Below, one piece after another: positions 8,555 to 17,855 of a stretch of 20,000 nt of DNA. Below the pieces are notes generated by a model, which ran no database searches, was not told the origin of the DNA, and saw only the letters and a program-made list of their open reading frames with translations. Positions within the stretch are counted from its first letter, which is position 1. Every line of letters begins with the position of its first letter. The position numbers and the translations under genes were made by a program. The DNA comes from an uncultured virus (IMG/VR IMGVR_UViG_3300021142_000034) (lineage: Duplodnaviria > Heunggongvirae > Uroviricota > Caudoviricetes): the IMG/VR virus record IMGVR_UViG_3300021142_000034. One strand, given 5' to 3'.

Positions 8555-9013
8555 TTAAGTTTGTGCTTGATAACCGCGATTGTTATTGCGGATAAAACTT
8601 ATATGCCCTTGAGTAACACCAAGAATTTCTGCAATTTCCCTCTGCAATCCCTTGGCAGTTCTTGCAAATTCTACTTGCTCATTGGTTAATTTTGCTCGTC
8701 CATGCAATTCTCCAACACGCATTCTCATCTTTTGTTTTGCATCTTGCATGTTTTCTTTTCTTGTTCCAAGCTTTAAATGCTCTGGATTTACGCAAGCAGG
8801 CGTGTCGCATGAATGCATCACATCTCTTGTGTCAAGAGGACCATTAAAAAGTCTAAAAGATGCCCGGTGCGCAAGCTCATTTTTTGCTGGAGTCCTAAAA
8901 AGACCATATCCATTTTTCATGCGGTAAGCAGACCAAAGCCAGCAGCCATTCTCGGCTTTATGTATTTTTGACATAAAGCGTTCAACTTCCGACATTTTTT
9001 GCTTAGCCGCCAC
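8555..9013 (-). CDS. Free-standing HNH homing endonuclease with C-terminal HTH-like DNA-binding region
   Basis: GCWLW...GYG...AHR...VMHSCDTPACVNPEHL..GT..EN motif; C-terminal QREIAEILGVTQGHIS; GTG start after AAGGAG; more AT-rich than the flanks. Confidence 0.9.
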   Translation of the reverse strand: MAAKQKMSEVERFMSKIHKAENGCWLWSAYRMKNGYGLFRTPAKNELAHRASFRLFNGPLDTRDVMHSCDTPACVNPEHLKLGTRKENMQDAKQKMRMRVGELHGRAKLTNEQVEFARTAKGLQREIAEILGVTQGHISFIRNNNRGYQAQT

Positions 9014-13235: not shown

Positions 13236-13454
13236 TTAATACTTACCGCCGTGGCACAGATGCTTTTGGTGTTTGTGCAAGTGCTCAACAGCTTCGTGAT
13301 GCTTGTGGTGACCTGCGGCGTGTTTGCCGTAGTGTTCATGGTGATGAACGTGACCACCAGCTTCATGCTCTTTCAAATGATGAACCATGTGCTTGTGCTC
13401 ATGGTGATGAGGAGCGTGACCGTGAGGATGAATAGGAGCGTGTTTATGAGACAT
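13236..13454 (-). CDS. Extremely His-rich small protein (72 aa, 28 His)
   Basis: ATG 13452-13454 after AAGGTG; MSHKHAPIHPHGHAPHHHEHKH...LCHGGKY. Confidence 0.75.
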   Translation of the reverse strand: MSHKHAPIHPHGHAPHHHEHKHMVHHLKEHEAGGHVHHHEHYGKHAAGHHKHHEAVEHLHKHQKHLCHGGKY

Positions 13455-13464
13455 GATTTTCACC

Positions 13465-14184
13465 TTATTTCTTATGATGCATCTTGGCTTTGCCGCCATG
13501 CTTCAGACCAGTGGTGCTGCCGTGCATTTTTTCTTGCAAGGCGCGAGTGTGACCTTTTTGCTGGATAGCGTGCTCGCCATGAGCGCGCTTCTTCTCGCCG
13601 TGCTCAATAGAAGTCAGACCTTTGTGCATGGTGCGCACTTCTTCCTTCATTTCTTTCTTGCCGCCAGCAGCTTTCTCAATTACTGTGCCGTCAATCTTGC
13701 CGCCTTTAGCGTAGTGGTGTTTGGCGTGAGCCTTGCCGCCATGCTTTAAGCCCATCTCGCCCATGTCTTTAGACTTAGGCACATGGTCAGCAGTCATGTG
13801 ACCGCCTTGGTGCATGTGCATGTGGTGCTCAGCCATAGCCAAATGGTGATGAGCCAAATGCTTGTGGTGAGACTTGGTTAAGCCACCATGAGCCATACCG
13901 GGAGCGCCTCCCATAGGTGCGGCTGGAGGAGCCATAGTAGCTGCCATTGCTGGACGAGCTGGGGCGGTGCGACGACGAGCTGCTGCCGCACCCATTAATG
14001 CGGCCATTGCCGCTGCTGCTTTAGGACTAGTTGCCATATCACCACCTCTTTTGAAATGTTTGCCTTTATCGGCTTCTGCGAAATCACGCCCAACAGATTG
14101 AGGGACGTGAACCTTTTTTGCAAAAGCCTTATTATGGGCTATTGCTTCCATAAAATTATGTTGTTTTTTGCTTGTGCTTGGCAT
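13465..14184 (-). CDS. Basic, His/Lys/Ala-rich low-complexity protein with repeated Phi-x-x-GG motifs
   Basis: 239 aa with 30 His counted; motifs FKRGG, MAHGG, MHQGG, LKHGG (x2) and YAKGG. Confidence 0.8.
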   Translation of the reverse strand: MPSTSKKQHNFMEAIAHNKAFAKKVHVPQSVGRDFAEADKGKHFKRGGDMATSPKAAAAMAALMGAAAARRRTAPARPAMAATMAPPAAPMGGAPGMAHGGLTKSHHKHLAHHHLAMAEHHMHMHQGGHMTADHVPKSKDMGEMGLKHGGKAHAKHHYAKGGKIDGTVIEKAAGGKKEMKEEVRTMHKGLTSIEHGEKKRAHGEHAIQQKGHTRALQEKMHGSTTGLKHGGKAKMHHKK

Positions 14185-15436: not shown

Positions 15437-15462
15437 GTAAAACCAAGGGGCCGAAGCCCCCC
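15437..15462 (-). terminator. UUCG-tetraloop hairpin, probable leaky intrinsic terminator
   Basis: mRNA GGGGC-UUCG-GCCCC followed by an interrupted U tract (UUGGUUUU), just after the stop at 15471. Confidence 0.6.
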
Positions 15463-15470
15463 GAGATTAA

Positions 15471-16181
15471 TTAGTCGAAGTTACCGTATGGGTAAGTCGT
15501 TGCGTTACCAATGTTCATGTCGTTCTGGTTATAGCGAATAGTCACTTCAACTTGACCAGATGTCAAACCAGCAGCAGTCGTGGTCATTGCCAAAGTAACA
15601 ACCACTTGACCATACCAAGCTGGGTCTTGACCAACGTATGGGTTTTGGAAATCTTGCAGCGTAGCATTTGAGTTAGCCAACTGAGAACCAACAAAAGTAG
15701 CCGTGTATCGCTGTGCGGCTGGGCTGGAGATGTTGGCAAACGTAGCGTAAACACCAGTAGACGTTGCAAAGTTATTTGAAACGTATGGCTGAATTGCGCT
15801 CACAGCAACAGGAGTACCGGCGCTATCCTTTGGCACTGTACCAATATCAAAGATCACATCAGTGATGTTGCAGCTGTAAGGAATATAGAAAACTACGCCG
15901 CGATAAACCAAGTTGGTAGCGTCAGCAGTTGGAGCAGAAGCCTTTGTAGGACCGCTATTGCTGAATACGCCAGACTGAGGGGTCCAGATCGTTGCGTTGC
16001 TATTGGGGATGTTGTTTGAGGCAACAAACTGACCAGAGTTGCCACCATAGTTTGCACCAGGTGTAGTAACAGAAAAATCCAAAAGAGCCGTTTGAACGAG
16101 ATCGGTATAGCCAACATCGCGGTTAGGGCCGAAACGGTTTTGCCCAGACAGAATTGGGCCTGAAAAGGTGGAGCGTGCCAT
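15471..16181 (-). CDS. Putative head-associated virion protein (236 aa)
   Basis: SD AAGGA; N-terminus MARSTFSGP; beta-rich; first structural-looking gene after the capsid gene. Confidence 0.7.
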   Translation of the reverse strand: MARSTFSGPILSGQNRFGPNRDVGYTDLVQTALLDFSVTTPGANYGGNSGQFVASNNIPNSNATIWTPQSGVFSNSGPTKASAPTADATNLVYRGVVFYIPYSCNITDVIFDIGTVPKDSAGTPVAVSAIQPYVSNNFATSTGVYATFANISSPAAQRYTATFVGSQLANSNATLQDFQNPYVGQDPAWYGQVVVTLAMTTTAAGLTSGQVEVTIRYNQNDMNIGNATTYPYGNFD

Positions 16182-16270
16182 GACAGTAAGTCCTTATGCA
16201 AAAGATAACGTGCCGATTGTTGCATCATGACCGCTGGGGCGGCTGGTGGCACGCTTGAATTCCCCAGATG
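16172..16270 (-). ncRNA. Putative structured cis-regulatory 5' leader RNA (multi-pseudoknot)
   Basis: Four complementary pairs lie within about 75 nt before the SD, plus a 9-bp alternative pairing with the start-codon region (detailed in findings). Confidence 0.55.
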
Positions 16271-16274
16271 TCTC

Positions 16275-16302
16275 AATATACACCAAATACAAAATTAAGC
16301 AA
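16275..16302 (-). promoter_or_regulatory. Putative sigma70-type promoter
   Basis: -35 TTGCTT (16297-16302), 16-nt spacer, -10 TATATT (16275-16280). The start site would fall just before the structured leader. Confidence 0.45.
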
Positions 16303-16861
16303 GAATTTTGTTGGACTTTATTAAGTTTTCTTCCTGAGTAATCACCCTTAAATTCCAAGGTACATGAAGGCCGCAAACATCAGGCGAGATCAACGGAACG
16401 ATGTGGTCAACCACATACCTCTCGCCAGTAATCTTGGTCATCTTCTGCGCCTGCAAATATAGTCCTCGCATAGCTAACTTCTGTTCTGCCGTGATCCAAG
16501 CCGGAGTAGCGTCGCGGTGTCTACGCTTACGCACACTGGTTAGTGCTTTGTAATATTCTGGATTGTTTTCTTTGTGTTTTTTCTTGTAAACATTTTTTTC
16601 TTCAGCAGGTCTTGCACTTGCCCTAGCTTTTACAGCTTCTTTGTTTTTTTCATAGTACCTGCGAGCAGCTTCTTTGGCGGCTTCTGACTTGGGTTTTTCT
16701 TTGCGTTTGGCATTTCCAATTTTCCATTCGTCTTTCATGCATTCAACGCACAAGCCCTTTGTTTTGCGTAGTGCTATATGACCACGACTACACGCAAGCC
16801 CAGTGAAATAGTACTTACTGCCGGTTTTCTTTGCCTCTAACCTGCTACTTGGATAATCCAT
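16295..16861 (-). CDS. Free-standing HNH endonuclease with N-terminal Cys/His zinc-binding motif
   Basis: Start MDYP after AAGGAG; 188 aa. YFTG..C.RGH...C.EC, basic helical linker, then VDHIVPL....VCGLHVPWNL...EN..KSN. Confidence 0.88.
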   Translation of the reverse strand: MDYPSSRLEAKKTGSKYYFTGLACSRGHIALRKTKGLCVECMKDEWKIGNAKRKEKPKSEAAKEAARRYYEKNKEAVKARASARPAEEKNVYKKKHKENNPEYYKALTSVRKRRHRDATPAWITAEQKLAMRGLYLQAQKMTKITGERYVVDHIVPLISPDVCGLHVPWNLRVITQEENLIKSNKILA

Positions 16862-16899
16862 TATTGCTCCTTGCGTTACGATACAGGAAATCATAACAC

Positions 16900-16924
16900 A
16901 AATAAAAAGGGGCCGAAGCCCCTT
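16900..16924 (-). terminator. Rho-independent terminator after the major capsid gene
   Basis: mRNA AAGGGGC-UUCG-GCCCCUU followed by UUUAUUU. Confidence 0.85.
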
Positions 16925-16952: not shown

Positions 16953-17855
16953 TCAATAAGTTCCGTAGATACCTAAAGGATCTGACCAGCCAAAAGAGTA
17001 GCGTTCGCGGCTCTTATAGCGTACATTCCCCGTGTCAAAGTCTCCGTCCATTGAATTTTGCAATGGGGTGCGTTCGAAGTGCTTCATGCCGTTAGGCACG
17101 TCGGTCAACAGGAACCAAGCATTAGGCGCGGTCAAGAAGTGGTTAATGGTGTAACCCTCTGGGATCGAACCATTGTTCTCGATAGCGTTAATGTCGTTGT
17201 TGTTAGTACCAACGCGCAACTTAGTTTCGAGCAAACGGGTTGCAACGAACTGCAGTGCTGGAGGAACAATCAACTTCTTGGGTTTAGCTGCAATCAGCAA
17301 GCCACGTTCATCGGTCCATGCGGCGATTTGAATCACAGCGTTTTCCAACGATGTTTCATTCAAGTCGGCAGGGGTAGATGGGCTGTTGCTGTTAGTGCCA
17401 CCGTTCACCAAGGGGTGAGCGCTGTTAAACAAAGAAACGCCGTCACCACCAACATAAGCAGAGTTAAAGCCGTTGTTCAAGACGGCAGCAGCTTTAACTT
17501 GTTTGGTGTAAGCCATAGCACGAGCCAAGCCTTTGGTGTAACGAGCAGACAGGCTGTCGTACAGGTTATCTTCAATCGCTTCTTCAGTGATTGAGAAACC
17601 CAAGGCGATGGTTTCGTGGTTATAACGAGTTGTCCATGCTTCTTGTGCATTGTCATAAGCGATGGCGGAGCCTTCGTTCTTAACAGGTGCAGCAGAGAAA
17701 CCAGACAGTTTCGTTTCTTCTTCAAAGCTACGCTCCGAGGTTTCGGTTTCGTAGATTTCTTTGTGCTCTTCGCCGTAGCGTGCATACTCCAAACCGAACA
17801 AAGCGTTCAGACCTGGCAGCAATTCTTTGAGCAGTTGTGCGCGTGAAATAGCCAT
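16953..17855 (-). CDS. Major capsid protein (HK97 fold, Mu gpT-like family)
   Basis: 300 aa; MAISRAQLLKELLPGLNALFG N-terminus; P..LIVPP.L motif; C-terminal RERYSFGWSD; strong SD AAGGAG; followed by a terminator. Confidence 0.9.
   Translation of the reverse strand: MAISRAQLLKELLPGLNALFGLEYARYGEEHKEIYETETSERSFEEETKLSGFSAAPVKNEGSAIAYDNAQEAWTTRYNHETIALGFSITEEAIEDNLYDSLSARYTKGLARAMAYTKQVKAAAVLNNGFNSAYVGGDGVSLFNSAHPLVNGGTNSNSPSTPADLNETSLENAVIQIAAWTDERGLLIAAKPKKLIVPPALQFVATRLLETKLRVGTNNNDINAIENNGSIPEGYTINHFLTAPNAWFLLTDVPNGMKHFERTPLQNSMDGDFDTGNVRYKSRERYSFGWSDPLGIYGTY

Follow-up and report, generated by a model that had tools for sequence, protein, structure and literature searches.

The minus-strand leader of a phage gene analysed here is a conserved, uncatalogued double-pseudoknot variant of the orphan phage RNA motif Mu-gpT-DE. 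It was studied in 20,000 nt of DNA from an uncultured lake virus of the Caudoviricetes (IMG/VR record IMGVR_UViG_3300021142_000034), the whole of which is termed the window, and it precedes a gene that encodes a 236-aa protein (Table 1). The leader, with its four pairings P1–P4, is real and is common to a very common group of aquatic phages, the HTVC023P type.

A sequence-only reading of the window had proposed the four pairings and, when the sequence was re-checked, each strand of P1–P4, the Shine-Dalgarno (SD) sequence and the AUG were found at the minus-strand positions given to them. The core of the fold is a three-way junction of three GAC strands, in which each C pairs with the next G and the three adenines are unpaired. 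The arms of the junction are P2, P3 and a single pair that closes an 8-base loop. The loop of P3 pairs with the 5′ end of the leader to form P1, and the third loop pairs with the ribosome-binding region to form P4. P3 is flanked by junction adenines A16244 and A16228. The three GAC triplets are exact in 81 of 120 leaders of this long form sampled by protein. The window has a derived variant, found in 42 of 170 subfamily leaders, whose P3 is one pair longer and itself covaries; in the window's copy the triplets are eroded to the three adenines and two of the pairings. The crossing layout of two pseudoknots had also been proposed, and it is beyond chance: none of 79,658 dinucleotide shuffles of 16190-16270 gives four helices of the same lengths in the same order, a pattern that was set after the fact. 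The nested folding energy of the leader is unremarkable (z = -0.3 to -0.6), as is expected because the leader is a pseudoknot.

Table 1. Features of the leader and its surroundings in the window (all on the minus strand).
Feature	Position	Strand	Remarks
Major capsid protein gene, Mu gpT-like, HTVC023P-type	16953..17855	-	Pfam PF25209 E 7.5e-15, PF10124 E 2.3e-9; PHROG 371 major head
Intrinsic-terminator-like hairpin 3′ of capsid gene	16906..16924	-	
HNH/endonuclease VII-like gene between capsid gene and leader	16295..16894	-	PHROG 1035 E 1.5e-16, PHROG 144 E 4.9e-6
Sigma-70-like promoter	16275..16302	-	-35 TTGCTT 16297-16302 (3/6); -10 TATATT 16275-16280
P1	16262-16267 / 16234-16239	-	5′ strand pairs with P3 loop; 5′ pseudoknot at the inferred transcript end
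P2	16248-16255 / 16207-16214	-	One G-U pair; 5′ strand in window lineage also complementary to 16172-16180
P3 hairpin	16240-16243 / 16230-16233 (element 16228..16244)	-	One pair longer than family form
Third junction arm	16217..16227	-	Lone pair U16227-A16218 closes loop holding P4 5′ strand; junction adenine A16217
P4	16220-16225 / 16196-16201	-	3′ strand immediately 5′ of SD; 3′ pseudoknot
Shine-Dalgarno-like AAGGA	16191-16195	-	9 nt before AUG; retained across subfamily
Start codon AUG	16179-16181	-	
Alternative-helix target, start codon and codons 2-3	16172..16180	-	Pairs with 16247-16255
236-aa jelly-roll protein, probable capsid cement/decoration protein	15471..16181	-	Structure model pLDDT 83.6
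Terminator-like hairpin 3′ of 236-aa gene	15446..15462	-	Weak U tail

Leaders for the covariation analysis were drawn by the N-terminal motif of the protein and by the capsid gene, and not by the RNA itself. From 150 sampled leaders, 107 fit one anchoring rule and 54 were left after removal of those more than 90% alike; the 43 excluded from the anchored set include short forms and the window's own variant. Among the 54, and against a tree-simulated null, 18 column pairs covary at E<0.05: eight in P2 (all of its eight pairs), six in P4, three in P1 and one in P3. The best pair outside P1–P4 has E>2, and no non-helix pair is significant. Covariation in homologous leaders was the check that the sequence-only reading had called for, and it extends to all four stems.

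Sequence alone served to anchor P2 and P3. The 5′ strand of P1 and the 3′ strand of P4 were placed by best complementarity, which inflates the P1 and P4 scores, and a partner swap and a sequence-only alignment serve as controls. Native partners score at least 5/6 in 98% (P1) and 100% (P4) of leaders, compared with 21% and 26% when partners are taken from other leaders. In the sequence-only MAFFT alignment of 57 leaders, that of the window included, 88.4% of cells are paired versus 63.3% when shuffled and 28-38% when slid. RNAalifold alone recovers P2 and P3. The lone pair of the third arm is C-G in 161 and U-A in nine of the 170 distinct subfamily leaders, with no mismatches, and the U-A form accompanies no fewer than two distinct P2 sequences. 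All 54 anchored leaders retain the three junction adenines, partly on account of the anchoring rule, as does the window variant.

Close homologues of the 236-aa protein were found at 80 loci, two of which have too little upstream DNA, and the leader is kept in 76 of the 78 scored. At the two exceptions (L033, at 1500-2390, and L040) an open reading frame that resembles a GIY-YIG endonuclease by motif reaches up to the start codon; expression of the gene is thus possible in the absence of the RNA. A model built from 41 leaders outside the window subfamily ranks 16176-16270 first in the window, weakly, with 18.6 bits (E 0.019); typical subfamily members have 38-46 bits. Named relatives of the window capsid protein include HTVC023P and HTVC027P (∼65% identity; 64.8% for the HTVC023P capsid protein), DSL-LC04, and the Roseobacter phages CRP-901 and CRP-902. 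The long form scores 65.8 bits in HTVC023P, 55.9 bits in HTVC027P and 38.3 bits in DSL-LC04. Three of seven named relatives, Yong1, QDWS535 and Caulobacter phage RW, have neither the long nor the short form, and together with the two homologous loci this shows that some lineages can dispense with the leader. In four of five genomes there is a single strong copy. Searches of named phages with the leader (blastn) and with the 236-aa protein (tblastn) gave no match.

The leader type of the window is also found before a shorter protein of 160-175 aa that belongs to another sub-family (L110, L119, L134, L154), and the window's own variant occurs before four divergent proteins. Since one leader type precedes differing proteins, the distribution suggests that leaders and genes reassort.

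The sequence-only reading could assign the leader to no known RNA family. This holds for the long form, which has no Rfam match, but not for the core without P1, which is Rfam RF03012, Mu-gpT-DE. At gathering and E-value thresholds, Rfam gave no match at the leader in the window or in 40 homologue loci. RF03012 does not match the window leader at E<=10 (its gathering cut-off is 49 bits), nor was it found in 20 close homologue loci, 20 loci of the CUAGG type and seven other long-form loci, or at the leader in related records. Thirteen short leaders in the protein-drawn sample do match RF03012, seven of them above the cut-off, and the short form of CRP-901 reaches 72.3 bits. The leaders of CRP-901 (short form) and DSL-LC04 (long form) stand before proteins that are 72% identical. 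Another Rfam family, Polynucleobacter-1 (RF01718), has no match at the leader in five related records, and its seed sequence is unlike the leader (PMC2864571).

The Mu-gpT-DE model has 53 positions, is filed in Rfam as 'Gene; sRNA', and is displayed with a structure of nine pairs and no pseudoknot. The motif reportedly stems from a 2017 survey. The main text of PMC5737381 does not name it, and a CaCoFold study adds covarying pairs to it, with no function given (PMC7657543). Both forms have three GAC strands at the junction, eroded in the window's copy, a closing P2, a P3 hairpin, and an SD and AUG directly behind. Both follow a Mu gpT-like capsid gene and precede the same gene family, with the optional HNH gene between in the window. 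In the short form P3 is long and self-contained, the 3′ strand of P2 runs into the SD, and P1 is missing. In contrast, the long form has a short P3 (4 bp in the window) whose loop forms P1, a strongly covarying P4 after which the SD follows, and a longer P2 that excludes the SD. The long form therefore works from the Mu-gpT-DE core but fails as a member of RF03012, and is an elaborated relative of it. An intermediate form, with a P3 loop of ∼11 nt that remains paired to the 5′ end, was seen in five leaders (L351, L405, L440, L458, L465), of which L351 and L440 reach 51 and 45 bits under the long-form model. The long form is missing from Rfam 15 and is far commoner than the short form in the protein-drawn sample. 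No description of it was found in the literature searched; the supplement of PMC5737381 could hold one, and it may well be numbered among the 10,006 viral candidates, built from IMG/VR, of PMC10690425.

On its minus strand the window covers the head-tail region of a tailed phage. A capsid gene lies at most 1.5 kb upstream of the leader in 219 of 232 cases. The HNH gene that separates the two in the window is optional at this position (present in four of 43 loci tested). The -35 box of the window promoter overlaps the stop codon of the HNH gene, and the HNH insert therefore provides a replacement promoter element. One locus, L001, has the same leader and protein as the window, no HNH gene and a better -35 box.

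A plausible promoter just upstream of the leader had been put forward in the sequence-only reading. In the window itself it is weak and unlisted by a consensus scan, but it is well supported in relatives: a full sigma-70 match precedes P1 by 7-9 nt in 87 of 172 upstream regions, versus a mean of 1.5 and a maximum of 6 in shuffled sequences. As the promoter ends 7-9 nt before P1, P1 would lie at the start of the transcript, and the promoter position points to a transcription start near 16268-16269, two or three bases before P1. Infection RNA-seq of HTVC027P is in accord with a promoter of its own. There gp62, the gene behind this leader, is classed as late; its TPM ratio to the capsid gene is 0.48, 1.23, 0.67 and 0.38 at 6, 9, 12 and 15 h, and at 9 h it is 3.7-fold above the upstream gp60 (PMC12753301). 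That gp62 mRNA rises earlier than that of the capsid gene fits a promoter firing before the capsid peak. These values are gene-level TPM from one phage and do not speak to translation.

The location of P1 at the transcript end bears on one simple explanation, that of a constitutive, ligand-free element in which the knot guards the 5′ end and fixes the translation rate, so that the mRNA is stable and the cement-to-capsid ratio is set. The absence of a conserved alternative fold and the degeneration of the junction that is tolerated in the 42 subfamily leaders are compatible with it as well. Yet a plain hairpin would suffice for such a role, the junction adenines are kept to the extent described above, and the short form does without any P1. 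This explanation is considered rather unlikely.

The 236-aa protein is probably a capsid cement protein. No family was assigned to it by Pfam, PHROGs, PDB sequence, Atlas or Foldseek-PDB searches. Its structure model gives Z-scores of 6.3-6.8 to head-accessory chains of Bordetella, Pam1, KHP40 and GP4 phages (6.8 to 3j4u_H and 7eel_H, 6.7 to 7dou_4), but 6.9 to an unrelated chain, and the scores of cement/capsid chains are tied with those of unrelated beta-sandwiches. A profile of the subfamily weakly matches the annotated cement protein of DSL-LC04, even without the first 25 residues (E 0.0015 among 221 sequences). Two properties sought in a cement protein, a jelly-roll model and a gene near the capsid gene, are found. 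Family proteins range from ∼70 to >300 residues and have mainly a short N-terminal motif in common. They are acidic, with a pI of 4.5 in the window and a family median of 4.5, and Pfam and PHROGs show no known RNA-binding domain in the 236-aa protein.

The relation of P4 to the initiation site was surveyed in 331 anchored leaders from all samples, including pattern-chosen ones, of which ∼10 rows are visibly misparsed. The 3′ strand of P4 directly adjoins the SD in 171 leaders, lies over the AUG in 54 and overlaps the SD in 40; in 46 it ends at least 3 nt upstream, in 19 P4 has fewer than 4 bp, and in one there is no clear SD. Where P4 covers the AUG, GCCA lies opposite AUGGC in 60 long-form leaders and CCCA opposite AUGGG in two, with one mismatch case. 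In the short form it is P2 that pairs with the SD. Sub-families thus differ in how they reach the initiation region, and this is the main argument for control of translation.

Pairing of P4 into the SD or AUG, in 94 of the 331 leaders, also bears on a role away from the adjacent gene, either as a small RNA that is released and acts in head assembly or packaging, or as a self-cleaving ribozyme. The promoter, the location among head genes and the Rfam filing of RF03012 as an sRNA could be read in this manner. However, no terminator separates the motif from the gene, which together with the P4 pairings makes such a role highly improbable. HDV-like ribozymes have a nested double pseudoknot, with the 3′ strand of P1 after P3 and a catalytic C in J4/2. 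The strand order of the leader differs from this textbook arrangement, as the 3′ strand of its P1 is the P3 loop, and no ribozyme model matches over the leader; an HDV-like ribozyme is highly improbable as well.

The leader is regarded, with slightly more confidence than doubt, as a cis-acting translational operator on a separately transcribed capsid-cement mRNA. Transcription would begin two or three bases before P1, and the folded RNA would impede 30S loading by means of P4, most likely limiting the amount of protein produced. Closure of P4 would then be set by a protein that recognizes the invariant junction adenines. The most likely partners would be free cement protein, with feedback repression once capsids are saturated, or the capsid protein, with release when shells exist. 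Either partner would match cement output to head number. P1 probably also protects the 5′ end against decay. Translational control as first proposed thus survives in part: the conserved leader beside the ribosome-binding site of a probable head-accessory gene was borne out, and the start-codon helix as a switch was not. Against the operator, the SD itself is left unpaired by P4 in the window subfamily and P4 ends at least 3 nt upstream in the 46 leaders noted above; blocking is therefore not assured. In addition, acidic cement proteins that share little beyond an N-terminal motif do not suggest an RNA-binding protein.

The start-codon helix had been described in the sequence-only reading as a perfect 9-bp pairing of 16247-16255 with 16172-16180, mutually exclusive with P2, and it is present as described. 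On this basis P2 and the start-codon helix would be two states of a switch, the second of which shuts off translation. The helix is 9-10 bp long in six leaders that precede divergent proteins, and is ∼2.4 kcal/mol more stable than P2 in a nested calculation, as well as compatible with P4. The length of the match is non-trivial, the chance of a P2-to-gene-start match that long being ∼0.02 over 36 P2 types, and one position is G-C, G-U or A-U among the six. However, a helix of at least 7 bp is found in only eight of the 170 distinct subfamily leaders and is absent from the other 162; six of the eight are of the window's own lineage. All six share one P2 3′ strand, so that, judging from the shared leader sequence, their helix would have a single origin. 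A sister leader of this lineage, L653, has changes in both P2 strands that restore P2 and break the alternative helix. P2 can also form ∼27 nt earlier in transcription, and P1 and the junction, neither of which enters the energy model, keep it in place. A two-state switch of this kind is thus very unlikely.

The 3′ strand of P2 is a near repeat of codons 1-4 of the gene. As the chance of such a repeat is only ∼0.02, short local copying is the likelier origin, and the start-codon helix most likely arose as a side effect when a short stretch of the gene start was copied locally into P2. It is lineage-specific and probably incidental.

Small pseudoknot riboswitches that close over the SD, such as preQ1 and SAM-II/V, are known. 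The leader resembles these in having a 3′ pseudoknot helix at the ribosome-binding site, but has no Rfam match, a structural-gene context and a different strand order. A metabolite or ion riboswitch, with the junction as binding pocket and P4 as expression platform, would be consistent with a compact double pseudoknot that starts at the transcript end and has a conserved junction. Yet the leader is seen only before one family of phage structural genes, and never before metabolic or transport genes, in a sample that is partly gene-chosen. In a collection of cellular genomes, 19 matches to the motif (L329-L347) were found, all in metagenome bins of unrelated taxa and none in an isolate genome; these are probably misbinned phage contigs. 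Only about a dozen bases are conserved, and these are eroding in the window lineage. There is, moreover, no conserved mutually exclusive platform helix, given the eight of 170 leaders noted above. A metabolite riboswitch is therefore unlikely.

Precedents for the preferred reading, that of a translational operator, come from phage and bacterial mRNAs. T4 gene 32 has a phage mRNA pseudoknot operator upstream of its ribosome-binding site (PMC535899; PMC10690425), and here too a conserved pseudoknot is found at the initiation region of a gene. The autogenous control of gene 32 serves as the model for the preferred reading. The topologies differ, no sequence relation is expected, and gp32 is a nucleic-acid-binding protein, whereas an acidic jelly roll is encoded here. 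The rpsO (S15) operator likewise has a pseudoknot near the initiation site, which is stabilized by protein and has a competing fold (PMC3985624); no conserved competing fold is found in the leader.

More tentatively, and as a possibility that is doubtful at present, the leader may be a widespread phage-borne sensor RNA. In this form, a pseudo-threefold GAC junction with two kissing arms would respond either to a host metabolite or, through free cement or capsid protein, to the state of head assembly, and would gate cement synthesis. A second, start-codon-covering state was perhaps added in the window lineage. Little is known of how phages adjust the amounts of accessory head proteins to the number of capsids, and no function has been assigned to Mu-gpT-DE. 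If the sensor reading is true, the orphan motif would gain a function, and one of the most abundant groups of aquatic phages would carry regulatory RNA of a new class, acting on virion stoichiometry. With the long form in cultured HTVC023P, HTVC027P and DSL-LC04 and the short form in CRP-901, function is directly testable. The 80-base double pseudoknot around its three-way junction also lends itself well to structure determination.

Other genes of the window minus strand may be mentioned. Two very histidine-rich small proteins are encoded among the head genes, at 13236-13499 and 13465-14184, and the longer of these has an N-terminal match to virion-protein PHROGs. A second open reading frame that resembles an HNH endonuclease, judged by motifs only, is at 8555-9013. 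A glycoside hydrolase family 19 endolysin is encoded at 401-997.
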